The notes below the pieces were generated by a model. It made no database searches and was not told the origin of the DNA. It worked only from the letters and a program-made list of their open reading frames with translations. From positions 434,001 through 498,000 of the forward strand of contig QPGO01000042.1 in NCBI GenBank assembly GCA_008632985.1: a DNA stretch of 64,000 nucleotides, read 5' to 3'. Below are positions 4,070-23,764 of the stretch, piece after piece. Positions within the stretch are counted from its first letter, which is position 1. Every line of letters begins with the position of its first letter. The stretch comes from Psammoneis japonica. Taxonomy: Eukaryota. The translations under genes were made by a program, and so were the position numbers.

Positions 4070-4750
4070 TCAGTCGGCGGGTTGGCTGGTCGGTTGGTCG
4101 GCTGGTCCGCTGGTCGGCTGGTTGGTTGATCGGTTGGTCAGTTGGTTGGTTGGTCGGTTGGCTGGTTGGTCTGTTGGTCGGTTGGTCGGTTGGTTGGTTG
4201 GTCGGTTGGTTGGTTGGTTGGGGTTGGTTGGTTGGTTGGTCGGTTGGTCGGTTGGTTGGTTGGTTGGTCAGTTGGTTGGTTGGTTGGCGATTGCTGGGTG
4301 ATCCATTCAACAGTTTTTGACATTTTTTTCTTCTGCATCATTTGCAAATGCATTGAGAATGGCGCAGGGCAGGCAGATTGCCAAAAACTTTGAGTGTGGA
4401 CAGGCACAAATGCACTTGAAGATGAAAATGTCCATCAATGAAATTCTTGCACTGCAGAGCTGGCTCGCACGTAGAATTCTGCAGGCCGAGTGTCACAAAA
4501 CATCCCACCCAGGACTGGAACCCGTCAGGGACAAGAACAACCAGGGCATGGAATGAAAGAGAACTTAAGCGCCGACCCACCGACCCACCAACCCGCCGTC
4601 CCGACGTCCTGCCGACCTGCTGACCTGCCGACCCACCGACCCGCCAACCTGCCAACCCGCTGACCCGCCGACCCACCGACCCACCGACCTGCCGACCCAC
4701 CGACCCACCGACCCACTGACCAAGCAACCAACCAACCAACCAACCAAGAG
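4070..4750. repeat. Converging (GGTT/GGTC)n and (CCGA/CCAA)n arrays with a MITE-family end (..GGACTGGAACCCGTC, 4526) between them
   Basis: Arrays at about 4070-4287 and 4571-4746. Confidence 0.8.
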
Positions 4751-4833
4751 ACGTGACTTGATGTCCAGCAATGAAGAAACAAGATGGGGCACAGCAATTG
4801 CCCCATGAAGAATGTTGGTGCACTCTTCGACAC

Positions 4834-6945
4834 CAACATGTTCCAGCTGAGTGCCAATCACATTGAAAATGTGGCGCTGTGAATGGAGTCAACAACAGGA
4901 CCAGTGGCCCTTGGATCACATTGTTGCACCATTGACTCCAATCAAGTGACAGCCACAGCAATGCATCAAAACCAAAAGAATGCAACCCACTCAATCTTCT
5001 TCTCAAGAGGTTTGAAATCCTTTTGAAAAGTTCCTTGGACAAATGAGTGTGGGAAGAACCAGTGGATCTCACCGTGAAAAATCTGACACAATTCTACAAT
5101 GCGTGAGAACCTTCTCCCATCACAGTCTTTGGTGGCATCCATTTGAAAGAAATTTTTCCAATTGTGAAAGATTGAAGTTTTAAAAATGAAGTTGCTCAGC
5201 ATGGGTTGCTCTGAGACTCATTGTCAAAGGAAAAAGGGTCAAGTTTGACCTTGTCCAACTCTCAGAAGCTCAGCAAAAGGTTCGCACACATGGTGAGCCC
5301 TTTGCTCAACATTCAGCATTTTGTCACCTTTGTAAAAAAAAATTGAACAGACATTCACACAACCAGAAAAGCCACTTTGAAGGCAGACAACCAAAAGTCC
5401 TTCACCGCTTGGCTTGAAACAAACCATCAAGACTTCCACACATGATGGTGTGCACCCAACTGCAAAGAAAATGGAGGCAACTCAGGTGATCACAACACTG
5501 AAAAAAAAAAAAAACAAAGAACATTGCAACATCTTGTCTCAACACACATCGCTGATGTCAAGACATGCAGCCTCAATGATCTCACACACTTCAAGCCAAA
5601 TCCACCTCAACGAAGGTCAAGTGCGGAACAAAAATCTCCAAAAACATGCAGTGCATCATGTCAAAAACTGCACCACCATCATGCCTGAAATTTGGCACTC
5701 ACATCACAACGGAAAAAGAGCTTCTGTCCATGGTGGAAACACTTGGGAAATTCCGGAATGCACTGTTTGGCCAACACTTTGACGTGTGATCTCCTGCACA
5801 CTTCAAGCCAAATCCACCTCAATGAAGGTCAAGTGCAGAACAAAAGTCTCCAAGAACATGGAGTGCATCTCAGTTTGGTTTTGCCGTGTTTTTGAACAAA
5901 AATCCAGGGGATTGCCACCTTTTACCCTGTTTTTCTGTGGAAAGGGTGAATTCCCAGGGAGTTGCCACAAGCTGCCCTTCATCACATGTGCGCTCAATGC
6001 ACGAATAAAAAACAACACATTGGCAATTCCCCGTGCTTCCCCTCTCGTGCATTTCTGCATGTTCTGCATGCCAGCACGTGCGGAGCCACACATCAGATGC
6101 ACAAATCAACAACCGAACAACGCAACAAAAATGGGCAACACGCCATGGAGCATTTGCATCCCATTTGTGACGGCTTTTGTCAAACAATGATGACACTGGT
6201 CAATCCAGTGAACAACATTGTGATCGACAGCACAAAATGTAAAATGAGCAGAAGCTTGACCGATTGCGCTCAGAAAACTGGTGTGTTGATGGATCGTTGC
6301 ACTCACTCTTTTGTTGTGAGGCCACAAATGTGAGCCACGCGGCATCCATGGTGAAGTCCAAGGCAAAAGCAGAACCATGCATGGCTGATAAAAACATGAT
6401 GGATTGAATGGTCTTGCTCAATTTTCCAATTGACACATCTTGTGCGCAGAATGAAGCAAATCATTTAGAGTCACTTTGACGTTGTGCAGCTGCAAATGCA
6501 AACCATGAGGCACCTGGAGTGAAGGCTGAGGAAAAAGCAGAGCCTCACAAGGCTGCTAAAAAAATGGTGGATTGAGTGGTCATGCTCATTCTTTCCTTTG
6601 ACCTGTCTTGTGTGCAGAACACAGTGTGCCATGTGTTCCTTCTTGACAGAATTCTAAGAAGAATTAAAGGTGCATGTCACTCTCTGGCTGAAACATGTGT
6701 GACCATGTACAAAAAGCCTGTCAGTTTGAAGAAAGCGGTAAATGGTTTAGTCGGTAACCGGTTATAAGAGGACCTAGGTTCGATTCCTGGGTATCGCAAT
6801 TTTTCAGGTTGATGGGTCGGATTTAATCGAGTTGGTCAATCTTGTTTAAATCCTGTCATGGTGCGAGGACCGTTGATGATTTGAACCTAGGTGTGTGTGC
6901 TCCTTCAAGATGACTCTAAAACTGAGGAGAGGCTGCGGTGAGACA
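4834..6945 (+). repeat. 2.1-kb direct repeat, copy 1 (copy 2 at 11234-13345)
   Basis: Colinear at an exact offset of 6400 with about 8 substitutions. Includes a gypsy RNase H remnant, a TRIM LTR and the TRIM PBS. Confidence 0.95.
6644..6945 (+). mobile_element. Truncated TRIM copy (5' LTR 6644-6858, PBS, start of internal region)
   Basis: Identical to 13044-13345, including the two TA>CA changes; breaks off at 6945. Confidence 0.9.
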
Positions 6946-8108
6946 AAGAATTCCGCAACGCTTTTCATCGAAAGCGGGACGTAAATCTGTACATTCAGGG
7001 AGGCAAAGTCGTTTGGGAATTTGCATACAGTGCTCTCGTGATCCGTGCAATCAAAGATCATATCAAGGGAAGGGCTTGGAATCCCAGTTTGGGAAGCAAA
7101 GGATGTTGGACGAGTCCTCTGGAGAGTCTCCCCGACGCTATTGCCCTCTACGAGTTTATGGGCCGCAAAGTTGACGAAAAGATGAAGAAGCGAGCAGAAG
7201 AAATTGAACGTACTTTTGGTGGTACACGCGCTTCTGATGGAATCAAGCTCACCCTTCGACTTGCTCTGAAGCAAGAAGTCGATGAAAACCAGGTGAATTC
7301 ATTGGGCTCCATTGATGTCACATTTCTCTACGACGCGCAAGTCGTTTCTGCTATCAAGATGTTGTCACCATTGCAGCGCTCATTCGATCCTCCAACAAAG
7401 ACGTGGAAGGTGGATGTGCTAGCGCTTCCTGACTTCCTCGACCAGATGGAACCGCTTGGGTACAAAAGATCTACTCATCTTGCAGCGGTAGCACAAGCCT
7501 GCTCGGACCTGCAAAAGCTCATGAGTGACTCGCTTAAGTATTCGATGTTGGTCGAACCCGGTCTTGAGGACTACGAGCTAGTTGAGGACGAACCATTAGA
7601 ACCTGTCGCTGTTGAGGACCTTGAGGCGGCGCTCAAAAAGCTGCTTGTGCTGGTAGGCGACAAGTCTCACTCCGCTGGAAAGCTTGATCGGTCCGATTGT
7701 GGGGAAGCGAAAAGACGTCGCCTGTCATCCAATAGCTTTGTCGGTGGTTATTTCGGTGATTTTGACTCCTTTTCTTCGTTTGCCAGGAATCACGTTCGAC
7801 GGTCAAAGGGGAAAAGGTCGAGGGACTCAACCCCAGCCAATTGCGACTGCGGTCAGCCGTGGAAACAAGTTGGTGGGAGGCACGTGTGTCGTTACTTTGG
7901 AACGTTCCATTGTCCTTGTGGCAATCAGTGGACTAGTGCCTATTGTTGGAAGGGCGAAAAACAAGCTTGCAGGAACTGCGACACGGAGAGTCTTCCAGCC
8001 AAAATCGACCCGTTGGACGGACGCCCCCCGATGAACACAGCCGGCGGTCACCACGATTCGGCCAGATGCGCCATGTGCAAGAGACTCGGCTATGATTGCA
8101 GCCTTTAA
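6945..8108 (+). CDS. 5'-truncated protein with two HARP-like repeats and a C-terminal 3CxxC (ZAR1-like) zinc finger
   Basis: Frame is open from the repeat junction (KEFRNAFHRKRDVNLYIQGGKVVWEFAYSALVIRAIKDHIKGRAWNP) with no ATG. Second repeat TFLYDAQVVSAIKMLSPLQRSFDPPTKTWKV. C-terminus YFGTFHCPCGNQWTSAYCW..QACRNC..HHDSARCAMCKRLGYDC. Confidence 0.7.
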   Translation, partial: KEFRNAFHRKRDVNLYIQGGKVVWEFAYSALVIRAIKDHIKGRAWNPSLGSKGCWTSPLESLPDAIALYEFMGRKVDEKMKKRAEEIERTFGGTRASDGIKLTLRLALKQEVDENQVNSLGSIDVTFLYDAQVVSAIKMLSPLQRSFDPPTKTWKVDVLALPDFLDQMEPLGYKRSTHLAAVAQACSDLQKLMSDSLKYSMLVEPGLEDYELVEDEPLEPVAVEDLEAALKKLLVLVGDKSHSAGKLDRSDCGEAKRRRLSSNSFVGGYFGDFDSFSSFARNHVRRSKGKRSRDSTPANCDCGQPWKQVGGRHVCRYFGTFHCPCGNQWTSAYCWKGEKQACRNCDTESLPAKIDPLDGRPPMNTAGGHHDSARCAMCKRLGYDCSL

Positions 8109-11208: not shown

Positions 11209-11233
11209 ATCTGCAATACTTTTGCAGTACACG

Positions 11234-13345
11234 CAACATGTTCCAGCTGAGTGCCAATCACATTGAAAATGTGGCGCTGTGAATGGAGTCAACAACAGGA
11301 CCAGTGGCCCTTGGATCACATTGTTGCACCATTGACTCCAATCAAGTGACAGCCACAGCAATGCATCAAAACCAAAAGAATGCAACCCACTCAATCTTCT
11401 TCTCAAGAGGTTTGAAATCCTTTTGAAAAGTTCCTTGGACAAATGAGTGTGGGAAGAACCAGTGGATCTCACCGTGAAAAATCTGACACAATTCTACAAT
11501 GCGTGAGAACCTTCTCCCACCACAGTCTTTGGTGGCATCCATTTGAAAGAAATTTTTCCAATTGTGAAAGATTGGAGTTTTAAAAATGAAGTTGCTCAGC
11601 ATGGGTTGCTCTGAGACTCATTGTCAAAGGAAAAAGGGTCAAGTTTGACCTTGTCCAACTCTCAGAAGCTCAGCAAAAGGTTCGCACACATGGTGAGCCC
11701 TTTGCTCAACATTCAGCATTTTGTCACCTTTGTAAAAAAAAATTGAACAGACATTCACACAACCAGAAAAGCCACTTTGAAGGCAGACAACCAAAAGTCC
11801 TTCACCGCTTGGCTTGAAACAAACCATCAAGACTTCCACACATGATGGTGTGCACCCAACTGCAAAGAAAATGGAGGCAACTCAGGTGATCACAACACTG
11901 AAAAAAAAAAAAAACAAAGAACATTGCAACATCTTGTCTCAACACACATCGCTGATGTCAAGACATGCAGCCTCAATGATCTCACACACTTCAAGCCAAA
12001 TCCACCTCAACGAAGGTCAAGTGCGGAACAAAAATCTCCAAAAACATGCAGTGCATCATGTCAAAAACTGCACCACCATCATGCCTGAAATTTGGCACTC
12101 ACATCACAACGGAAAAAGAGCTTCTGTCCATGGTGGAAACACTTGGGAAATTCCGGAATGCACTGTTTGGCCAACACTTTGACGTGTGATCTCCTGCACA
12201 CTTCAAGCCAAATGCACCTCAATGAAGGTCAAGTGCAGAACAAAAGTCTCCAAGAACATGGAGTGCATCTCAGTTTGGTTTTGCCGTGTTTTTGAACAAA
12301 AATCCAGGGGATTGCCACCTTTTACCCTGTTTTTCTGTGGAAAGGGTGAATTCCCAGGGAGTTGCCACAAGCTGCCCTTCATCACATGTGCGCTCAATGC
12401 ACGAATAAAAAACAACACATTGGCAATTCCCCGTGCTTCCCCTCTCATACATTTCTGCATGTTCTGCATGCCAGCACGTGCGGAGCCACACATCAGATGC
12501 ACAAATCAACAACCGAACAACGCAGCAAAAATGGGCAACACGCCATGGAGCATTTGCACCCCATTTGTGACGGCTTTTGTCAAACAATGATGACACTGGT
12601 CAATCCAGTGAACAACATTGTGATCGACAGCACAAAATGTAAAATGAGCAGAAGCTTGGCCGATTGCGCTCAGAAAACTGGTGTGTTGATGGATCGTTGC
12701 ACTCACTCTTTTGTTGTGAGGCCACAAATGTGAGCCACGCGGCATCCATGGTGAAGTCCAAGGCAAAAGCAGAACCATGCATGGCTGATAAAAACATGAT
12801 GGATTGAATGGTCTTGCTCAATTTTCCAATTGACACATCTTGTGCGCAGAATGAAGCAAATCATTTAGAGTCACTTTGACGTTGTGCAGCTGCAAATGCA
12901 AACCATGAGGCACCTGGAGTGAAGGCTGAGGAAAAAGCAGAGCCTCACAAGGCTGCTAAAAAAATGGTGGATTGAGTGGTCATGCTCATTCTTTCCTTTG
13001 ACCTGTCTTGTGTGCAGAACACAGTGTGCCATGTGTTCCTTCTTGACAGAATTCTAAGAAGAATTAAAGGTGCATGTCACTCTCTGGCTGAAACATGTGT
13101 GACCATGTACAAAAAGCCTGTCAGTTTGAAGAAAGCGGTAAATGGTTTAGTCGGTAACCGGTTATAAGAGGACCTAGGTTCGATTCCTGGGTATCGCAAT
13201 TTTTCAGGTTGATGGGTCGGATTTAATCGAGTTGGTCAATCTTGTTTAAATCCTGTCATGGTGCGAGGACCGTTGATGATTTGAACCTAGGTGTGTGTGC
13301 TCCTTCAAGATGACTCTAAAACTGAGGAGAGGCTGCGGTGAGACA
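11234..13345 (+). repeat. 2.1-kb direct repeat, copy 2
   Basis: Matches 4834-6945. Confidence 0.95.
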
Positions 13346-13759
13346 GACCGACGATGCACATAGTGCTCTTATTAGGGATGCCGAGGCCGGAATGGCCGCC
13401 CAATTATCAGTTCGCCGGGGAGGTCATGACATGTGCAGAAAAATGTGGCCCAGGTAGAAGGGGAGCTGTGAGAAGTATCATTGTCCAAAGAAAGGAACGT
13501 CAGACAGCTTCGTGACGTCAGACAGCTTCGTGACATATGGGGAGTGACAGAATTCTAAGAAGAATTAAAGGTGTATGTCACTCTCTGGCTGAAACATGTG
13601 TGACTATGTACAAAAAGCCTGTCAGTTTGAAGAAAGCGGTAAATGGTTTAGTCGGTAACCGGTTATAAGAGGACCTAGGTTCGATTCCTGGGTATCGCAA
13701 TTTTTCAGGTTGATGGGTCGGATTTAATCGAGTTGGTCAATCTTGTTTAAATCCTGTCA
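13044..13759 (+). mobile_element. TRIM (non-autonomous miniature LTR retrotransposon), 716 bp
   Basis: 215-bp LTRs at 13044-13258 and 13545-13759 (TGACAG..CTGTCA, 2 mismatches). PBS TGGTGCGAGGACCG at 13259, PPT GGGGAG at 13539-13544, 286-bp non-coding interior with an 18-bp tandem repeat at 13498-13533. Confidence 0.92.
13135..13204 (+). ncRNA. tRNA-like Pol III cassette inside the TRIM LTR (also 6735-6804 and 13636-13705)
   Basis: A-box TGGTTTAGTCGG (13143-13154), B-box GGTTCGATTCC (13177-13187) inside T-arm CTAGG-TTCGATT-CCTGG, acceptor stem GCGGTA/TATCGC plus discriminator A, then a T5 terminator. No canonical anticodon arm. Confidence 0.7.
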
Positions 13760-13761
13760 AA

Positions 13762-14037
13762 TGATAGAAATTGAAGGCAAATGGCAAGAATTCAAACAAC
13801 AACTCCTTACTGCTGTCTAAATAGCAGATGAGTCTCCGCTCAGAGACCGTCACAGGAGCCGAAGGACATGTAAGTCGGTATAATCGGGCTACTGTCATTA
13901 TTCTTGTGAGCCTTGTGGCTCGAAAGCAAACTGCATCGCGCGTGAACGCGCGGAACTGAAGCACACAAAACTGTGCACGGCAAACCAAACAGCACTCGAT
14001 GCTTCGCGCGCACCTGAATCCTGCTCAAATCCTGTCA
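13762..14037 (-). repeat. Copia 3' LTR (276 bp)
   Basis: Aligns with 20595-20853 with 17 substitutions and one 17-bp indel. Confidence 0.95.
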
Positions 14038-14059
14038 CTCCCCAGTTTGCTTGAGGAGC

Positions 14060-17000
14060 CACAGAAACAGATTTGACTTCGGATGGAATGAAGTTCCAGA
14101 ACATGAGGGGGCGGAGAAGGTCCCAGATTTGGGAGCAATTCAGTGCTTGCTGAGAATGTCAGCAGGGTTGCGGGAGCCTTCGATGAAGTGGAGCTCAAGG
14201 TGACCAGAGGCAATTGCCTCACGCACACGGTGGAACGACAGTGCGGTGTGTCGCTTGCGCAACTTGGAGTGCGGGATGGTGGCGCTGTCTGCAGCCGACT
14301 TGTTGTCACCGAACATGCAACCAACATTGCGAGCCGGGACGCCAAGGCAGTGCAGGGTGATGCGCAGGTCGACAATCTGCTCAACACAAGTCCTTGCGGC
14401 AACAAATTCAGACCCGTGGGTCACAGTCTCCACGGTGGCTTGTTTCTCAGAGAACCAATCAGCCGGGAATTTGTTGAGGAAGTGGAGCATTCCCATGACA
14501 GAGCGTCCGGTGAGCATGCAATGGCGCAAGTTTGCATCGATGCAGTGGGTGGCAGCAGCGAACTTGCCAAGGGGCGGCAGAGCGTCCTTCGGGATCATCT
14601 CTTCTGCTTCGCCGTGCACGGAACGCATCCACTCACAGGCCGGAGCAGGGAGATCCGAGTGGCCGGGCTCTTCCGTGCGAACGCGGAGAGCGCCGTGTCG
14701 CATCTTGGAGAGGTGCCCACAGACGCGCTTGGCACGATCCAAGTGGCCTTGACGGGGCGCAGCTCGGAAGCCAGAGAGTGACATGACGGCCGTGGCAATG
14801 TCAACTCGACCAAGGGACACTGCCCATTGGAGTGAACCAACAAGAGACTGGAGCTTGTGGATGCCATCGGGTCCCAGCAGTTCGGAAGTGTCCAGCTCGG
14901 GGTGGCCACCCTTCTCTAGAGGTGACAGGGCGTTGGTGGTGGGTTTCTCCCCAAACAGTCGGGCACAGCTGTCGACCATGCGCTCGATGTGCTTGCGCGG
15001 AGACAGGCACAAGGTTCCGTCGGGTTCCCGGGAAAAGTCGCAACCCAGATGGAACTCAATGGGTCCCGCACCCTTGAGCTTGAACTTGTGCTTTTCCGTG
15101 AGGGTGTCGACGAAAGATTGAGGGTCCTTCATGGCAATGGCGAGGTCACCCACACAAACGGCAATGCACTCACAGTGGTCGCCGTTCCTGCGCATCCAAA
15201 TGTCGGGTTCGGCGCGGCAGGGGAAGAAGCCTTCAGCTCGCAGGCAGTCGGCGAAGCGCTCGTGCCAGCGGAGACCGGAGCTGCGCAGTCCATGCAGTGC
15301 CTTGTGGATGACAAGGATGTGTCCTTCGAGTTTGCCGAACTTGGGTCCAGCTGCAATGTAAAGCTTCTCCTTGGTGGTGGCTTCAAGGCAGGCATTGCCA
15401 ATGTCGGTGGCCCATGTCTCCAACTCGTTGAGTTCGGCCAGGAAAATCATCAGCCGAAGGCCACGGAGGGAGACTGCTCCGGAGCAGACACTGTCGACAG
15501 GCACGTCCGTGAGGTGCCCGTCGGCTGCGAGTCATGCCTTGTGGCGACCGTCGTGTTTCATGTCGCACACCAGGTGCACTCGGATCTTCTTGTGCCCCGC
15601 AGGAGGAGTGGAAGACTTGAAGGGCCCGCAGTCATGGAAGACTTCGCACTCGTCGAGTTGGTCCATCTCGAGATCAGTTGCGTCTCCCCACTTGCGGTTG
15701 CCGTTGCGTTCGTCCAGTGACATGGCGTGTTTGCAGTTCCGGGGAACTTCGCATCCATGCTTGCAGCGAGGTGCAGTGCGGAAGGAGCGAAGCTTGGCTT
15801 GGTTGGCCATGCGAAACAGCTTCTTTTGGCGCCTCGCGATGGTGCGGAACCGCTTCCAGCCATCCGTGTCGAGGAGTCCGTTCTCTCGTGCATGGATGGC
15901 ACAGGTGACGGGGTCGTCCTTGGCGATGATGGCAAGAGGCTCGGACGTGATCTCCCCACTTTCCCGTTCAAGCATGATGTTGTAGCTGGAGCCTTTCCAG
16001 GTTGGGTCGTGAGGCTTCAGAGGTCCTTCGTGTGACACGATGCGTCGAAATTTCCAAACAGCAGTGTCTTCGTCTTCTTGCTCAATGTGATTCATGATGT
16101 CATTGTGGGCAAGGACTTCCTCGCATTCATCATTGTTGACAGAGCAGACGAACTCAGTGAGCTTGGGATTGCCGCTCACTTTCCATTCGTGGTCTTCGAC
16201 GGCCTTGACGATGCGAGCTCTGTGGCGTTGTCCGTCCTCTTGTGGCTGCATGAGGAAGGTGCGTCCAATGATGTCTTGCGGATCGAAAACTGGCATCTTG
16301 GGTGTCCTGATCTCCCCATCAGGAGAGTCGACGGGGTTGTCGTCATGGCGAGATTTGATGATGGGTTCAGGTGGCTCCCCATCAGGAGGATCAAGACGCA
16401 GGTTTCGGACGGCAGGATCGGGGGCAGCGGAGCGGACGTTGGACCGGCAGAGGATCTTCTGATTCTGGTCAGATAGAATCTTGAAGGTCATCTGGTGGCC
16501 GACGTGCTCAGCAATGCCAACGAAGCGTCCACGCAACTCACGGGATTCGGACGGCCAATCGGAGTCATCGAGGTGGAAGCACACGGGTTCCCACCAGTGA
16601 AAGCGAAGCAATGGGCTGATGTCCGGGGTGGAGCCAGTGAGAGTCTCAAGGGGCGTGCGCCAGTGGAGACGTGGGGACGCTGCATGGTTGAGTGTGAAGC
16701 ACACGTGCATGAGCGCCAGCAGCCATGCATGGGCGGGCGAACCAAAACGATCCATGACAGTGTTCGCCATGTGCTTCACGGTCTGGTGTCGACGCTCGGC
16801 AAAGTTTTGGTGTTGCTGGTGAGGCTCACTTTGCCAGCTAGAGATGAAGAGGGCGCGTGGGATCCCGAGCACTTTGTTGCTGATCTCAACTTGAGCACGG
16901 TCGCTAATGAGTTTGGATGGGGCACCACGTTCACGGATCTGATCCTCGAGTGTGTTGACAAACTCTTTGTCCGTCTTGGTGCCGTAGACGTCAGTGACGG

Positions 17001-19653
17001 TAGACTCGGTGCCAACAAACAGCTGGGGACTGGTGCAACCAGAGTCGACGGCCGGGGTGTCGGCACAAACGGTGTCAGTGGCGATGGGCTCGTTGCGGCG
17101 GTGCACATCAAGGGCGGGGTTGGGTGATTTGCAGGCCTTGCGAAGGTGTGCACCGGCGGGCATGCGGGCGCACTGCATGGTGCAGTCAAAAGTACGACGG
17201 ACCGTGTCGGCAGGTGGGAAGCCAAAGCAAGGCCGAAGAGACTCGAAGGGGGGGTCCTTGGGCTGCACAGTGCGCGCCGGAGGTGGAACATCATCGCCCT
17301 GGGGGCCAATCGCATGCAGATGACACTCGTGGAACACGTCGTCGTTCGGAATGAGGTGATCATCGAGGGCGGACGCGTGATCGGCAGACAAGGAAGCGGA
17401 CATGATGGTCTCGTTGACAACGACACGATGACGGCAGTTGCCGCATTCGTCAAACAGGTTGGCAGTGGGATCGTCCTGCAGGTCAGAGATCGCGTCGCAC
17501 CACTGGTCGTCGTCAGTGACAGAGTGATCAAGGACGGAAGGGTCCCATGTGTCATCACCGGTGAGGATGACATGGGGCAGGGTGTCCCATTCGGCGTCAG
17601 TGCAAGGTCGCATGGCAACACAAGGCAGGCCAGCCTTGATGTCAATGGGGATGACATAGCCATCAGGAGTGGCAACATGTTGCAAGCCGTTGGGCACCTT
17701 GACAGAGCGATCGTTGACATCCTGTTTGCACCATTCGAGCTGGCCGCAGGAATGGATGGTCTTGCCCTTGCCCGTGCATGCGCGCTGATGGAGCATGGCG
17801 ATGACGGGACCACGCTGGGTCTCAATGACGGCACCAGCGGTGACAATGGGGATGTCCACCAATTGATGATCGTCAATGCCCTGAACGTCGACTTGGCGAG
17901 AGGTGCGTGCAATGACGCGAACGTCGTCGCCAGCAATGCCGCCGTTGGCCCCACGATCGACTAGAGCGCCAGTGCGTGTGGAGCGATGAGCAGAAGCAGA
18001 GCAAATGACATTGTGGTTGTCAACGCGGCGGTGAGTGCGACCGTCAAGTTCTGTGTCATCTGCAGAAGCTGGCGGGGTAGAGGAAGCGGCGGATGGCCCC
18101 GGTCGACTGGCATTGGGGGCTTGGTTAGGAGACAACAGACGTTGCAGATCACCGGGTGGCAGTGGCTTGCGCTTGGTGAGGTGCGCCAGGATGGGATCAT
18201 CTGAAGTGGCGTCCACATGTGGAGCGGAGTCACCAGAGTCAGCAGGAGTCGTGTTGGACAAGTTGACATCACCGTCACTCCCAAGGCGTTGGTCGTGAAG
18301 GTTGGCCGCAACAGACTCATGGCAGTTGCTGGCTCGCGGGTTGCGGGGAGGTGGACGAGAATGCTCAAGGATGATCGCCTTGGAGGAATCGGGCAACGAA
18401 TCCCAGAGCCGTTGGTGGTCGGGAGGGAGACGTCTCCATTGGACACCGGTGAGGCTGGGACCACGGGTGCAGGCAGCATTGGCTTGAAGGACGTCAACGT
18501 CGCTGTCAATGTCGCAGAACACATCGTCGGACGGTTCCTCGGAGCAGACGTCGTGTGCACATGTGGCGCGTCGGGGAGCTCGAGGTGTCGTCTTGGGTTG
18601 AAACGTGCTGTCGTGCTGAGCTGCGGCGGAGAGGAGCAAGCCACAGCATTGATCGCATGTGAGGCTCTTGCCACTCTGCGCACGATGCTGATCAGCTTGG
18701 TTCTTGACAGCACGGAGTTCCTCGACAGGGTGCACGGCATTCTCGAGCATGACGCGCTTCTGTCCTTCAGAGAAGTGGTCACTGGCCGGGATGAGTGCCT
18801 CGTGCTTGCGCAACTGATCTTGCCAATGAAGGATGAACCCGTGGGTCGGACCTTTCCAAGTGCCATCACCAAGACGCGCGGTGGTGAGGTGCGTGAGCAG
18901 GGTGGAGGACTCGACAGATGCGCGGGTGGAGGCAAGCGCGTGCTCAGACAAGGAGCGGCAGACGGTCTGTGCGTCAGAAGACCCCACATTTTCGCGAATG
19001 AGAGCCTTGCCCTTGTCGGTGAGAAGGATGCGTTCGAAGACGGCGAACATGTGCTTTTGCTGTTCAGCAAAGAGCAGTTTGTCTTCGGGGCTGGTCGGTT
19101 CATACGACGAGTCTAGAATGCACTCGATGTCTTGGGCACGGGCTTGTGCCACAAGTGAGGTGTGCCAAGTGTGCCACTGCTTGTCGGATTTGAGAGCCGT
19201 GAAAGCGGTGGGATCACGCTTGATGCCTCGCTTGAAGTCCCACACCGGGTCGCGTGCCTTGGTCGGGTTGGTGACATGTGGAGGTGCAAGGGGTGAGCTG
19301 CCGATGGACACAGAAGACATGCAGTCGGGGCTGAGGCGGTGGGCAAGGAACTCGTCATGCGTGAACAAAGAGGAGTCATTGGCAACGTCAAGACCTTTGT
19401 GTGCTTTGACAATGTACAGACTGACTGATGCTGCTAACATGTTCTTGTAACCACGGGGCAAAGGGATTGCATTGGTGCCGTTGTCGCACTCAAGCGAGTC
19501 TGTTTGGGACGGCATGAACGTGAACAGTTCCTGACATGAGTCCATGCCGTCTTGGGCCAAAGCCAAATGAAGAGGACTCCCAGCACCTTGGGCAAGCACG
19601 GTTCCAACCACGTGCTCGAAACCATCGGTTTGTTGCTGACGAGTGAGAACCAT
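14060..19653 (-). pseudogene. Copia gag-pol polyprotein pseudogene
   Basis: PR LVDRGANGG; IN ..ISDRAQVE..QNFAERR; RT HLVCDMKHDGRHKA*, KALHGLRSSG, CVGD (for YVDD); RNase H DANL..TGRS..GSEFVAAR..FGDN..NPADILSKH. TGA (from CGA) at ~15532 and a frameshift at ~14140. Confidence 0.93.
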
Positions 19654-20576
19654 GGCAGACAAAGGTGGTGTCAGGACAATCAATTCTGGTTGGGAAGCGA
19701 AGGTAGACTCGAAACTTGGGTGAGAATAGACTTGACTTGAAATGGACTTGACTTGAAATCTTGAACCATCTTAAAATCAGAAGTCGCCGGGCTTTGTCAC
19801 CCCGTTCGTTGTCAAGTGCTAAACTTCCTGTCCGGTCCGCAGAGTTGTGCCGGCACGTCCGAACCCGCAGCTGGTGGCGCTTTGGGTTGCTTGCGAGCGG
19901 AGCAGCGGGTTGCAAACCCCTGCAGGTAAGCTGACCAGAGGTGGACAAGACCCCCGAACCGTTCTCATTTTATGTCGGTTGGATTTCCCGATCAGGCTGG
20001 CCAGTTGACGCAGGCATCAGGCGCTGTGGACGAACGAACAAACGCGGGAAAGCACCCTCGCCCCAACGTAGGCTGCAATCACGGCTGCCTGCTCTCACAG
20101 TCATCCTCGTGGACCTAGCAGAACTGTGGAGCACCAGCAGTCCGGGGTAGATCAGGTGCAATGGACTCGGTGTGCTTGTAGAGTGGTGGCAAAACCGCAG
20201 TCCGAAGAGTGGATAAAGGTTCTTGGCCGTGAAGATATGTATATATATATATATGTCTTCAGCGACTAAGATCCTTGAATATGTAGGGTTCTTGACCGTT
20301 AACCGAGGAATAGGTATATCAAGGGATGTTGATCAAGGATAGACTTGGATATGACCGTTGAACATAAGTCTTCAGCGATCAAAGGTAGCACAATCAATCC
20401 AGATATCCAGCGGTAAGGAGACTTGACGGTGACGTTAACTTCCTGCCGATGCCCTGGTATTGAATGCGCGTAGACTTGCCGATGTATGTAGAATATATAC
20501 GGAGGTCCACGTAGAATTGAAATAGCGTCGTTGGTAAATCAACGACGACGATGGCGGTTGCTCAATGGGTTGACAA

Positions 20577-20594
20577 TGAGCAAGACTGTTAATC
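20577..20594 (-). promoter_or_regulatory. Putative primer-binding site complementary to an internal tRNA-Asn anticodon arm
   Basis: Element strand reads GATTAACAGTCTTGCTCA directly after the 5' LTR, with no TGG. Its complement contains GACTGTTAATC, a tRNA-Asn(GUU) anticodon arm sequence. Confidence 0.5.
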
Positions 20595-20853
20595 TGATAG
20601 AAATTGAAGGCAAATGGCAAGAATTCAAACAACAACTCCTTGCTGCTGTCTAAATGGCAGATGAGTCTCCACTCAGAGACCGTCACAGGAGCCGAAGGAC
20701 GTGCAAGTCGGTGTGATCGGGCTGCTGTCATTGTTCTTGTGAGCCTTGTGGCTCGAAAGCAAACTACATCACTAAAGCACACAAAACTGTGCACGGTAAA
20801 CTAAACAGCGCGCGATGCTTCGCGCGCACCTAAATCCTGTTCAAATCCTGTCA
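20595..20853 (-). repeat. Copia 5' LTR (259 bp)
   Basis: TGATAG..TGTCA on the + strand, followed by the TSD CTTCT. Confidence 0.95.
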
Positions 20854-21254
20854 CTTCTTGTGTGGTGTGGACACAAATGCAAACCACAATGGCGCTGGAG
20901 CAAAGGACAAGGCAAAAATAGAGCCTCACACAAGCAACATTGACGTGGCTGATTTAAAGGCAATGTTTCTTCTTTCCTTGCTCTGCCACAAGGGGGCAAT
21001 TCATGGCTTGGGATAAAAGCACACCCGCCTGACTGCAATTGCCACAGATTGCCGCACTCCATTTGCTTTTTGTTCCCCTCCCCTGAGCCCTTTCAGGCTT
21101 TCCTTCCTGAAACATTACCCTCATTTCCTGGGATTCCATCAAAAGGGCAAGGTGACTCCCCCTCACCCTGGCCATTTTGGGGAATCCCCAAATGGGCAAA
21201 ACCAAGCTGAGGAGTGCATCGTGTCAAAAACTGCACCACCATCATGCCTGAAAT

Positions 21255-21460
21255 TTGGCGTTCACGTCACAACGGAAAAAGAGCTGCTGTCCATGGTGGA
21301 AACACTTGGGAAATTCCGGAATGCACTGTTTGGCCAACACATTGACATGTGCATGGTTCACAAGACACAACAAACACAGAGTCGTGGGTGGGCAAATTGA
21401 TGCAGCACACAACGAGGGCATGGTGAACATTGTCGCAGAAGCATTCAGCCAACTTGCTGT
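21255..21460 (+). pseudogene. Decayed Ty3/gypsy RNase H fragment (further copies near 5700, 12100 and inverted near 22080-22160 and 23430-23510)
   Basis: HVTTEKELLSMVETLGKFRNALFGQ resembles gypsy YTTTEKELLSIVETLKEFRNILFG; GMVNIVAEAFSQL resembles GxxNxVADALSRL. Confidence 0.75.
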
Positions 21461-21787
21461 GAAGAAAATTGAGCCTTTTGAAATCCTGCAACAATGACCT
21501 GCCTTTAAAACAAGACAATGACATTTCCTCCAAATTGCCAGATGCAACACATCTTGCCAACACTTTTCGTGGAGGTGAGCAAGATCAAAAAGTGCTCATG
21601 TCACAAGGACAAAATTGTCTTGTCTGAAGATGCTTTGAAAAAATTGGTGACAGATTGGCACAAAATGCGTGCCCACTTCACACTGGAAAAAAAGACAGTC
21701 TCGCAACACCCGCGCAGTTGCAGTGTAAAATGTGCAAGGCAAGACACAAACAAACAATGTTGCTCTCAAAAGACACTTGGAAATTGG

Positions 21788-23764
21788 AGCATCTTCAGAC
21801 AAGACAATTTTGTCCTTGTGACATGAGCACTTTTTGATCTTGCTCGCCTCCACGAAAAGTGTTGGCAAGATGTGTTGCATCTGGCAATTTGGAGAAAATG
21901 TCATTGTCTTGTTTTAAAGGCAGGTCATTGTTGCAGGATTTCAAAAGGCTCAATTTTCTTCACAGCAAGTTGGCTGAATGCTTCTGCGACAATGTTCGCC
22001 ATGCCCCAGTTGTGTGCTGCATCAATTTGCCCACCCATGACTCTGTTTGTTGTGTCTTGTGAACCACGCACATGTCAATGTGTTGGCCAAACAGTGCGTT
22101 CCAGAATTTCCCAAGTGTTTCCACCATGGACAGCAGCTCTTTTTCCATTGTGACGTGAACGCCAAATTTCAGGCATGATGGTGGTGCAGTTTTTGACACG
22201 ATGCACTCCTCAGTTTGGTTTTGCCCATTTGGGGATTCCCCAAAATGGCCAGGGTGAGGGGGAGTTGCCTTCCCCTTTTGATGGAGTCCCAGGAAATGAG
22301 GGCAATGTTTCAGGAAGGAAAGCCTGAAAGGGCTCAGGGGAGGGGAACAAAAAGCAAATGGAGTGCGGCAATCTGTGGCAATTGCAGTTGGGCGGGTGTG
22401 CTTTTATCCCAAGCCATGAATTGCCCCCTTGTGGCAGAGCAAGGAAAGAAGAAACATTGCCTTTAAATCAGCCACGTTGATGTTGCTTGTGCGAGGCTCC
22501 ATTTTTGCCTTGTCCTTTGCTCCAGTGCCATTGTGATTTGCATTTGTGTCCACGCCACACAAGAAGGAACACATGGCACACTGTGTTCTGCACACAAGAC
22601 AGGTCAAAGGAAAGAAGGAGCATGACCACTCAATCCGCCATTTTTTTAGCAGCCTTGTGAGGTTCCACTTTTTCCTTGGCCTTCATTCTAGATGCCTCAT
22701 GGTTTGCATTTGCTGCTGCACGACATCAAAGTGATTCCAAATGACTTGCTTCATTCTGCACACAAGATGTGTCAATTGGAAAAATGAGCAAGACCATTCA
22801 ATCCATCATGTTTTTATCAGCCATGCACGGTTCTGCTTTTGCCTTGGACTTTACCATGGACGCCGCATGGCTCACATTCGTGACGGCACGAAAAAAAAGA
22901 GTGAGTGCAACGATCCATCAACACACCAGTTTTCTGAACGCAATCTGTCAAGCTTCTGCTCATTTTACATTTTGTGCTGTTGATCACAATGTTGTTCACT
23001 GGATTGACCAGTGTCATCATTGTTTGACAAAAGCCATCACAAATGAGACACGAGCGCTCCATGGCGTGTTGCCCATTTTTGTTGAGTTGTTCGGTTGTTG
23101 ATTTGCGCATCTGATGTGTGGTTCCGTGCGTGCTGGCATGCAGAACACGTAGAAATGTGTGAGAGGGGAAGCACGGGGAATTGCCAATGCATTGTTTTTA
23201 TTCGTGTGTTGAGCACACATGTGACGAAGGGCAGTTTGTGGCAACTCCCTGGGAATTCACCCTTTCCACAGACAAACAGGGTAAAACGTGGCAATCCCGT
23301 GGATTTTTGTTCAAAAACATGGCAAAACCAAACTGAGATGCACTCCATGTTCTTGGAGACTTTTGTTCTGCACTTGACCTTCATTGAGGTGGATTTGGCT
23401 TGAAGTGTGCAGGAGATCACATGTCAATGTGTTGGCCAAACAGTGCATTCCGGAATTTCCCAAGTGTTTCCACCATGGACAGAAGCTCTTTTTCCGTTGT
23501 GACGTGAATGCCAAATTTCAGGCATGATGGTGGTGCAGTTTTTGACATGATGCACTCCATGTTTTTGGAGATTTTTGTTCTGCACTTGACCTTCATTGAG
23601 GTGGATTTGGCTTGAAGTGTGCAGGAGATCATTGAGACTGCATGTCTTGACATCAGCGATGTGTGTTGAGACAAGATGTTGCAATGTTCTTTGTTTTTTT
23701 TTTTTTTTCAGCGTTGTGATCACCTGAGTTGCCTCCATTTTCTTTGCAGTTGGGTGCACACCAT
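21788..23764 (-). repeat. Right arm of a ~2-kb inverted duplication (left arm = 11845-13043 plus 20854-21634)
   Basis: Reverse-complement match with a ~153-bp spacer (21635-21787). Carries the empty LTR insertion site (single AGAAG at 22562-22566). Confidence 0.9.

Follow-up and report, generated by a model that had tools for sequence, protein, structure and literature searches.

The 716-bp element at positions 13044 to 13759 of the window, by which we mean the whole 64,000-nucleotide stretch of DNA analysed here, is in our judgement probably a Helenus-type TRIM (class TRIMp3), non-autonomous, resident in a diatom-like genome and carrying a tRNA-derived module in each of its LTRs. The kind as such has been described: Kojima (2024, PMC10886601) gave TRIMs with tRNA-derived LTR sequences the name "Helenus" and placed them in class "TRIMp3" together with Cassandra. 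As far as we found, however, it is apparently new in the stramenopile branch. The Helenus hosts in Table 1 of that paper are only fungi, animals and Selaginella, six stramenopile terms have no match in its main text or one supplementary file (PMC10886601), and our literature search, judged by titles and abstracts, found no earlier report of a TRIM with tRNA-like LTRs in diatoms. A preliminary description of this DNA had seen in the element a tRNA-based analogue of Cassandra. In structure (a TRIM with A/B-box-like motifs and a T5 run in its LTRs) this was right, but the idea is not new, Helenus having been named in 2024, and the background then taken as established, namely 5S promoters in Cassandra and SINEs without LTRs, was out of date with Helenus already in print (PMC10886601). 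The stramenopile host proposed at the same time holds, as the host ORFs in the window are closest to diatom proteins.

Layout and copies of the element

Direct repeats at 13044-13258 and 13545-13759 bear out the claimed TRIM with 215-bp LTRs. Its features, and a further LTR copy, are as follows (positions in the window).

13044..13759, + strand: whole TRIM, 716 bp, with 215-bp LTRs and a 286-bp internal region
13044..13258, + strand: 5' LTR, 215 bp, ends TGACAG...CTGTCA
13135..13198, + strand: tRNA-like unit of the 5' LTR, with stems of 4 bp (D) and 5 bp (T) and 6/7 acceptor pairs
13143..13154, + strand: A-box-like TGGTTTAGTCGG, fourth base T where C is expected
13177..13187, + strand: B box GGTTCGATTCC, which fits GGTTCGANNCC at every base
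13200..13204, + strand: T5 run of the 5' LTR, two bases past the discriminator with one A between; candidate terminator for Pol III, where the R/U5 border is also predicted
13259..13272, + strand: primer binding site (PBS) TGGTGCGAGGACCG, beginning at the first base past the 5' LTR
13273..13538, + strand: remainder of the internal region, non-coding, containing an 18-bp tandem duplication (13498-13533)
13539..13544, + strand: short polypurine tract (PPT) GGGGAG, ending at the base that abuts the 3' LTR
13545..13759, + strand: 3' LTR, 215 bp, with its own tRNA-like unit (13636-13699), B box (13678-13688) and T5 run (13701-13705)
6644..6945, + strand: third LTR copy, which continues into the PBS and internal region (87 bp); no difference from 13044-13345 (100% identity)

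Among the marks of a TRIM, the element has direct LTRs with TG...CA ends, a short non-coding interior, a total length below about 1 kb and a PBS and PPT that adjoin the LTRs; the ORF list gives no frame of 90 aa or more inside 13044-13736. Its two LTRs agree at 213 of 215 positions (99%), and both differences, each C/T (LTR positions 30 and 61), fall upstream of the 64-nt tRNA-like unit that 5' and 3' LTR both hold in the element's own orientation, with six of the seven acceptor pairs. The third LTR copy sits in a 2117-bp duplication (4830-6945 = 11229-13345) and does not count as a separate insertion; the LTR copies of the window, three in all, go back to a single insertion and represent one lineage. 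The truncated copy was also considered as the start of a longer coding relative, a candidate we rejected because the adjoining ORF (6942-8108) is not gag-like and gives only weak HARP and zinc-ribbon matches.

Reads from a single sample suggest that there is more than one copy of the TRIM. Unitigs internal to it have k-mer depths of 385 and 424 versus 33-44 for the lowest-depth repeat variants, a comparison that takes the lowest-depth contigs as single copy. A variant at position 13406 is carried by eight read contigs, one LTR read contig shows 10 differences in 106 bases, and another read contig is identical over 13194-13375 and then diverges. These data bear on the option that no mobile family exists and that the element is a local deletion or rearrangement product of a longer LTR element, in a repeat region that is badly rearranged and possibly misassembled. 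Such an origin would fit a TRIM that has no TSD of its own, a second copy that breaks off past 87 bp of internal region inside the 2117-bp duplication, a read contig that runs on into different sequence after 13375 and the N runs that lie nearby in the scaffold. We nonetheless regard it as improbable, since the LTR-PBS...PPT-LTR layout is complete with LTRs 99% identical, the depth of the internal-region unitigs is about tenfold that of the lowest-depth variants, the reads include a diverged LTR variant, and blastn (word size 7, E<=10) aligns no part of the internal region with the neighbouring copia element E1. The one short match in E1, a 17-mer in its coding part, stems from the TRIM LTR.

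The tRNA-like unit and its promoter motifs

The 64-nt tRNA-shaped unit with collapsed anticodon arm and T5 run, as quoted in the preliminary description, is found letter for letter at 13135-13204 and again at 13636-13705. Just 14 nt stand in place of anticodon arm and variable loop, where a full tRNA would need about 22-23, and having lost the anticodon arm the unit cannot be a decoding tRNA. An Infernal-type check of the LTR, which had been proposed for it, gave a divided answer. On the one hand, all of the Rfam tRNA model (positions 1-71) can be aligned on the + strand with 13135-13198 and 13636-13699, with four letters for the anticodon arm against 13 in the model; on the other, the score is 17.5 bits versus a gathering score of 29 (E=1.3 in a 1-kb scan), a scan of the full 64 kb does not list the match at E<=10, and no tRNA gene in the 64-kb window, the unit included, is called by ARAGORN. 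With an incomplete cloverleaf, no ARAGORN call and an Rfam score below the gathering score, the unit does not qualify as a functional tRNA gene. The same Rfam scans (1 kb and 64 kb) gave no match to 5S rRNA at E<=10 and none to ribozyme families.

Is the likeness to a tRNA then fortuitous? A model score below threshold and the lack of a significant fold would allow for this, folding of the unit being no better than that of shuffles (z = -0.9). In favour of a tRNA-derived module, the minimum free energy fold of the unit (-18.1 kcal/mol) keeps the D and T hairpins and three acceptor pairs; full cloverleaf-like pairing comes to -14.3. Our scan required GGTTCGANNCC without mismatch, T and D stems of 5 and 4 bp, six or more of the seven acceptor pairs and, within 12 nt, TTTT; this full set occurs in the window in exactly three places, which are the three LTR copies. 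The same combination turned up in one of 300 random 64-kb sequences (first-order Markov; mean 0.003 per sequence), a control figure that is generous because the criteria were chosen after the unit had been seen. Chance resemblance is hence unlikely, and as a full account of the unit we grant it next to no probability. Two weak matches to the tRNA shape, at 273 (+) and 4522 (-), lie beside GGGTCGGC-type simple repeats and were discarded as they fail the D-stem test.

Nor is the unit a separate SINE, an outcome that would have told against the original proposal: within the window it is seen only inside the three LTR copies, no SINE-type body or tail is visible around it, and the 64-kb window does not show the free-standing head with body, tail and TSD of its own that defines a tRNA-derived SINE.

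Beyond the window, patterns taken from the element were searched in three further collections. The D-loop plus B-box pattern gave no match in metagenomes (variable gap allowed) and none in viral contigs, and the 21-mer of T arm plus acceptor gave none in prokaryote genome contigs. The pattern of LTR end plus PBS has a single metagenome match, in a GC-rich coding-like stretch without direct repeats, which we put down to chance, and two matches in viral contigs, neither of them LTR-like. Viral contigs also hold two matches to the 21-mer (L004, L005), in which no tRNA was called; the one in L004 is not LTR-like.

As for the promoter motifs, the A-box-like TGGTTTAGTCGG agrees, save for its fourth base, with the A-box consensus. 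The gap between A and B box is about 22 nt in the unit and about 32 nt in a normal tRNA. Owing to the mismatch at a conserved base and to this shortened gap, the strength of the promoter is uncertain. Judging from the motifs, the A-like and B boxes may recruit TFIIIC and Pol III, with a predicted start at or just 5' of 13135 in the 5' LTR. The majority of transcripts would end at the T5 run and yield a tRNA-like RNA of about 65-70 nt, and a read-through fraction of about 570 nt would reach the T5 run of the 3' LTR. With such read-through, the tRNA-like unit would serve as terminal redundancy, R being at about 13135-13203, U3 at 13044-13134 and U5 at about 13204-13258. Speaking against a Pol III reading, the T5 run directly past the unit would stop most Pol III transcripts before the PBS.

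That last point may also be taken as a sign that the element is an ordinary TRIM driven by Pol II, in which the tRNA-like stretch is a passenger, i.e. a remnant of a tRNA-derived SINE or of a tRNA that landed in an ancestral LTR, came to be copied into both LTRs and has no promoter role today. A terminator two bases past the unit that would abort a Pol III genomic RNA is what one might see in a passenger, as is the degenerate state of the unit (17.5 versus 29 bits, no ARAGORN call, collapsed anticodon arm, one A-box mismatch), and insertion of a SINE into a TRIM LTR is the very origin that Kojima proposes for such elements (PMC10886601). What makes us doubt it is the pattern of what was kept: the B box has no mismatch, pairing persists in the T, D and acceptor stems despite loss of the tRNA middle, and the T5 run is placed where the terminator of a tRNA gene sits. 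Moreover, the two T5 runs (13200-13204, 13701-13705) are the only runs of four or more T on the + strand of the TRIM, albeit this is weak evidence given that 16% of random sequences of equal length have none. With a single lineage in the window, a recent capture looks the same as selection for the unit. All in all, we consider a mere passenger a serious possibility, yet a rather unlikely one.

Insertion site, candidate helper and reverse transcription

The TRIM abuts a copia element, and the two share one insertion site.

13039..13043, no strand: left copy of the TSD CTTCT, bounding the composite of TRIM and copia element, not the TRIM alone
13760..13761, no strand: AA spacer that separates the TRIM from the copia element
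13762..20853, - strand: Ty1/copia element E1, opposite in orientation to the TRIM, with LTRs at 13762-14037 and 20595-20853
20854..20858, no strand: right copy of the TSD CTTCT, closing the composite of TRIM and E1
22562..22566, - strand: single CTTCT of a paralogous empty site, in an inverted duplicate of the flanks

Proof of the insertion comes from the paralogous empty site, where CTTCT stands only once. A TSD of 4-6 bp for the TRIM alone is absent at the locus, where CTTCT on its left faces AATGA on its right. E1 has a pol frame (14140-19770) with one in-frame stop and an RVT_2 match, its polyprotein being about 1876 aa long, and the reads are very rich in its LTR family. The 12-mer GGGGAGTGACAG (GGGGAG|TGACAG), which joins PPT and LTR start, is identical in TRIM and E1 and has only these two matches in the window at up to one mismatch, and the last 21 bases at the 3' end of the TRIM LTR match the corresponding E1 LTR end at 86%. 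The PBS regions of E1 and TRIM differ, however, so E1 itself need not be the helper. A relative of E1 is the best candidate for the autonomous partner of the TRIM; fungal Helenus, too, are tied to Copia elements with 5-bp TSDs (PMC10886601). The insertion common to TRIM and copia element hints at the machinery that moves the TRIM. Relatives of the E1 reverse transcriptase were not confirmed among viral contigs.

Ty1/copia proteins would then reverse-transcribe the RNA of the TRIM, with a cellular tRNA on the PBS as primer, and insert the copy with a 5-bp duplication. Alternatively, the unit may act in reverse transcription or RNA processing, instead of or besides transcription. RNase P and RNase Z recognise the acceptor and T-arm half of tRNA, and it is this half that the unit has kept; in addition, with CCA added to them, the five final bases of the unit would form perfect pairs with PBS bases 1 to 8, TGGTGCGA. 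In one variant, a trimmed and CCA-tailed minihelix from the LTR would prime on the element's own PBS; in another, RNase P and RNase Z would cut at the unit and define the RNA ends. We think either role very improbable. The PBS runs for at least 14 bases and pairs poorly with the unit past base 8, a separate cellular tRNA being the better fit, and with GC-rich acceptor ends common to many tRNAs, a match of five bases counts for little. In none of the Helenus elements did Kojima find this complementarity (PMC10886601). The prospect of a minihelix that is promoter and primer in one, made by Pol III, trimmed, CCA-tailed and annealed to the first eight PBS bases, strikes us as similarly faint. If true, the TRIM would carry both promoter and primer, which the described Helenus families do not show.

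Significance and comparison with known systems

The element opens no new category. If a census and expression tests succeed, the range of Helenus/TRIMp3 would widen from fungi, animals and one lycophyte to diatoms, a different eukaryotic supergroup, which would lend support to repeated independent births of TRIMs with Pol III promoters. The stripped-down unit, with boxes, acceptor, D and T arms and terminator yet no anticodon arm, offers a compact test case for the minimal needs of such a module. For annotation it carries a warning that tRNA-like matches in diatom genomes can be LTR-borne.

With tRNA-derived SINEs (SINE2) the element shares a tRNA-derived head with internal A and B boxes, a non-coding nature and the borrowing of another element's reverse transcriptase; unlike it, SINEs are without LTRs, PBS and PPT and are copied by non-LTR (LINE) machinery. 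Retrozymes are likewise small non-coding LTR elements with a functional small-RNA motif in the LTRs instead of a normal promoter, but their motif is a self-cleaving hammerhead ribozyme, from which circular RNA results. Diatom Ty1/copia elements (CoDi groups; Maumus 2009, PMC2806351) resemble E1 in that it is copia-type with RVT_2; E1 is compared here as a possible helper, not as the finding itself.

Closer is Cassandra, the plant TRIM. Each Cassandra LTR borrows its Pol III promoter and terminator from the gene of a small RNA, and transcription presumably runs from the unit of the 5' LTR to that of the 3' LTR; here, both promoter and such transcription are predicted. Cassandra is found in land plants and differs in its 5S promoter (type 1, as opposed to tRNA, type 2), in a stated terminal redundancy of 18 bp versus the roughly 65-70 nt predicted here, and in transcripts shown by experiment, those of our element being predictions.

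Closest are the Helenus elements, for which Pol III transcription is stated as unproven and multiple origins are argued (PMC10886601). Unlike in these, the host here is a diatom-like stramenopile (kinship by descent with described Helenus is not implied), the anticodon arm has collapsed and the boxes are closer together than in tRNA. In most fungal Helenus the PBS pairs with the anticodon loop; that of our element would pair with the 3' end of a tRNA, and eight of its bases could pair with the unit plus CCA, a pairing the paper does not report (PMC10886601). Against the Helenus box A, TRGCY...YGG, we find TGGTT, with T for C as the one mismatch, and YGG as CGG; box B, GGTTC, is present together with the entire B box (PMC10886601). 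In other respects the two are alike (PMC10886601): both are short (716 bp here, 311-1263 bp in Helenus) with two LTRs, PBS and PPT, both bear in each LTR a tRNA-derived stretch that has box A/B motifs and is not a working tRNA, and help is likely to come from a Copia element with 5-bp TSDs, in fungal Helenus as here.

TRIM anatomy and its tRNA-like unit

Judged by its repeats and signals, the 716-bp non-coding LTR retrotransposon at 13044-13759 shows the anatomy of a TRIM in plus orientation. A primer binding site (PBS) of the tRNA-3'-end type, TGGTGCGAGGACCG, begins at the first base past the 5' LTR, the six bases directly before the 3' LTR are GGGGAG, and ORFs of 90 aa or longer are absent from the 286-bp internal region. 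The LTR pair has two differences, both C/T and both upstream of the tRNA-like unit (LTR positions 30 and 61). Just upstream of the polypurine tract (PPT), an 18-bp unit (ACGTCAGACAGCTTCGTG) stands in two tandem copies (13498-13533), and a TGACGTCA palindrome is formed where they meet.

LTRs of the TRIM
13044-13258, plus strand: 5' LTR, 215 bp, direct repeat, ends TGACAG...CTGTCA
13545-13759, plus strand: 3' LTR, 215 bp, direct repeat, ends TGACAG...CTGTCA

Inside each LTR lies a 64-nt tRNA-shaped stretch (13135-13198 and 13636-13699) followed by a run of five T (T5). The string quoted for it in the preliminary description recurs exactly at 13135-13204 and 13636-13705, and the unit described there - acceptor stem, T5 and collapsed anticodon arm - is plainly seen in the sequence.

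Parts of the tRNA-like unit
Acceptor stem: GCGGTAA/GTATCGC, 6 of 7 pairs
D arm: stem GGTT/AACC, loop TAGTCGGT
Middle: 14 nt, versus ~22-23 for position 26, anticodon arm and variable loop
T arm: CTAGG-TTCGATT-CCTGG
3' end: discriminator A, one A, then T5

Checking the LTR against a tRNA model, as had been proposed, gave a divided answer: the Rfam tRNA model aligned at full length (positions 1-71, with four letters in the anticodon arm versus 13 in the model), but at 17.5 bits (E=1.3 in a 1-kb scan) the score stayed below the gathering score of 29. In scans of the whole window, the unit was not among Rfam matches at E<=10 and ARAGORN called no tRNA. By standard tools, the unit is a sub-threshold tRNA relic. 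Folded as RNA it does no better than shuffles (z = -0.9); the 64-mer has an MFE of -18.1 kcal/mol, retaining the D hairpin, the T hairpin and three acceptor pairs, while cloverleaf-like full pairing evaluates to -14.3 kcal/mol.

Could the resemblance be due to chance? A tRNA-shape scan for a perfect GGTTCGANNCC combined with a T stem of 5 bp, a D stem of 4 bp, 6/7 or more acceptor pairs and TTTT no more than 12 nt away matched only the three LTR copies in the window, and a full match arose in 1/300 first-order Markov random sequences of window length, although the true odds are less extreme because the scan was designed after the unit had been seen. Chance seems an unlikely explanation, and at the level of sequence a tRNA-derived module is shown in both LTRs, in sense orientation. 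Two weak matches of the scan were rejected as false, being B-box-like strings beside a GGGTCGGC-like simple repeat; runs of such repeats adjoin B-box-like strings at 210-270, 640-719 and 4560-4740.

A composite insertion with a copia element

On its own the TRIM has no target-site duplication, with CTTCT at its left and AATGA at its right. Two bases (AA) past its end begins an LTR of E1, a neighbouring Ty1/copia element (13762-20853) in opposite orientation.

Features of E1
13762-14037 and 20595-20853, minus strand: LTRs
14140-19770, minus strand: polyprotein frame, 1876 codons, one in-frame stop, RVT_2 match

RVT_2 is the only Pfam match of the polyprotein, with nothing else even at E<=10; the upstream 1412 aa, where integrase is expected, likewise matched no family at that cutoff.

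Directly after the right end of E1, CTTCT appears again. Both flanks recur in inverted orientation (23764-22560, 22566-21788), where GTTC-CTTCT-TGTGTGG runs uninterrupted, an empty paralogous site with a single CTTCT (22562-22566, minus strand). CTTCT on both sides together with this uninterrupted site indicates a 7810-bp composite bounded by one perfect 5-bp duplication. It comprises (13039-20858 including the CTTCT pair) the TRIM on the plus strand, AA and the inverted E1 on the minus strand, neither of them flanked by a separate duplication; on the outside the composite begins and finishes with an LTR start (TGACAG...), and at the inner joint LTR end meets LTR end. As for the surroundings, the inverted duplication spans 20854-23764, with 20854-21634 matching 22566-21788 at 96.5% and followed by the inverted copy of the TRIM left flank (23764-22560, ~94%). 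The flanks themselves consist of a degenerate repeat whose period is ~168 bp (12703-12851 versus 12871-13019, 72%), which is abundant in reads.

The 12-mer at the PPT/LTR start, GGGGAGTGACAG, is identical in TRIM and E1 and, with up to one mismatch allowed, occurs nowhere else in the window. Over its last 21 bases, the TRIM LTR agrees at 86% with the same end of the E1 LTR. As far as sequence alone can tell, a PPT/LTR-start signal and an insertion common to the TRIM and a copia element are shown. On account of these common cis signals, a copia family resembling E1 is the foremost helper candidate, with or without co-integration, although the PBS region of E1 itself differs from that of the TRIM. 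Co-integration would have the U3 ends of two cDNAs from the same machinery integrate together and their free ends joined later. Against one such event speaks the very unequal LTR divergence, 0.9% in the TRIM (2/215) versus 6.5% in E1 (17/261 aligned bases plus a 17-bp gap); to our minds co-integration is rather improbable. Among the 17 E1 differences, 16 are transitions and only 4 fall at CpG, with numerous CA/TA or TG/TA changes. In the TRIM LTRs, too, both differences are C-to-T with A as the next base. Candidate causes may be non-CpG methylation, editing, or exchange between copies.

Further copies and the host

At 6644-6945 there is a third LTR, followed by the PBS and 87 bp of internal sequence, all at 100% identity with the main copy. 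This copy sits within a 2117-bp duplication (4830-6945 = 11229-13345, 99.6% identity) together with 1.8 kb of left flank and, on this alignment, did not arise by a separate insertion. Beyond 6945 it continues straight into a host-like ORF (6942-8108), and the duplication is either a genuine segmental one or an assembly join. Weak HARP and 3CxxC zinc-ribbon matches were seen in this ORF, and N runs occur in the window at 720-2623.

Read contigs from the only sample found to contain the sequence (3 runs, 1 study, no RNA run among those listed), possibly the assembly's own source, were compared over 12800-14100; they allow no proof of absence. Unitigs of the TRIM internal region have k-mer depths of 385 and 424, the lowest-depth repeat variants 33-44, and the E1 LTR family sums to >100,000. 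Eight read contigs carry a variant at 13406, one LTR contig differs at 10/106 bases, and another of 1183 nt is identical across 13194-13375 before its sequence diverges; the unit is removed at none of the 4 joints listed. The TRIM is perhaps a small multi-copy family of ~ten near-identical copies plus older ones, an estimate that takes the lowest read depths as single copy. No relative turned up when metagenome, viral and prokaryote collections were scanned for patterns. In one run's contig, aligned at 13762, a copia-type LTR start directly follows the reverse complement of ~7187-7216, inside ORF 6942-8108, which suggests a further insertion or a haplotype absent from the window.

Long uninterrupted ORFs in the window encode a histone deacetylase, an MMS19-like protein, an AAA ATPase and an Atg22-like transporter. 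For the deacetylase, identity is 88% with a Minutocellus polymorphus transcript and 83-85% with Chaetoceros and Pseudo-nitzschia-type entries, and similarity is lower to Parmales, pelagophyte, Nannochloropsis and brown-algal proteins. Since its identities are highest to diatoms, the host is a diatom or very close relative, and the assignment to stramenopiles made in the preliminary description holds.

Candidate Pol III signals and relation to Helenus and Cassandra

The B box of the unit is a perfect match, and its A-box region (TGGTTTAGTCGG) departs once, T for C, from the consensus TRGCNNAGTGG, which often has an extra base; the gap between the boxes is ~10 nt shorter than that of a tRNA gene. 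On the TRIM plus strand, the two T5 runs are the only T4+ runs, as compared with four A4+ runs, a distribution weakly compatible with a Pol III-read strand given that TTTT is also absent from 16% of random sequences of equal length. With motifs published for related elements (TRGCY...YGG and GGTTC; PMC10886601), the unit agrees at YGG and GGTTC and deviates by one base at TRGCY.

As the most likely scheme we envisage that TFIIIC and Pol III may use these boxes, with a predicted start at ~13135. The majority of transcripts would stop at T5 to give a tRNA-like RNA of ~65-70 nt, while read-through RNAs of ~570 nt would end at T5 of the 3' LTR, so that strand transfer would rely on the unit itself as terminal redundancy; proteins supplied in trans by a copia element might then copy and integrate the TRIM RNA. 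The weak point of this scheme is the terminator immediately after the unit, and its main rival is a TRIM driven by Pol II whose LTRs carry a dead tRNA or SINE relic. A long shot would be self-priming, with the unit plus CCA as primer on the TRIM's own PBS: PBS bases 1-8 could form a perfect duplex with the unit's five 3'-terminal bases followed by CCA, but complementarity is poor further along.

TRIMs carrying tRNA-derived sequence in their LTRs have been defined as Helenus (Kojima 2024, PMC10886601) which, with Cassandra (5S, plants) and Ajax (5S, nemerteans), makes up TRIMp3; by that paper's own statement, it infers and does not demonstrate that Helenus is active with Pol III. The earlier idea of a tRNA-based Cassandra analogue was right in outline, but such elements are already published as a class. 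Table 1 of PMC10886601 lists fungi, six animal phyla and Selaginella as hosts; its main text holds no stramenopil-, oomycet-, diatom, brown alga or protist, one supplementary file has none of six stramenopile names, and a literature search of titles and abstracts found no report of a Helenus-like element in diatoms. Within these sources, the host lineage is new, as are the collapse of the anticodon arm and the insertion as a composite with E1. Fungal Helenus, too, have been tied to Copia elements with 5-bp target-site duplications (PMC10886601). Cassandra transcription is described as running from the unit of the 5' LTR to that of the 3' LTR (introduction of PMC10886601), and the read-through RNA predicted for the TRIM would likewise span the two.
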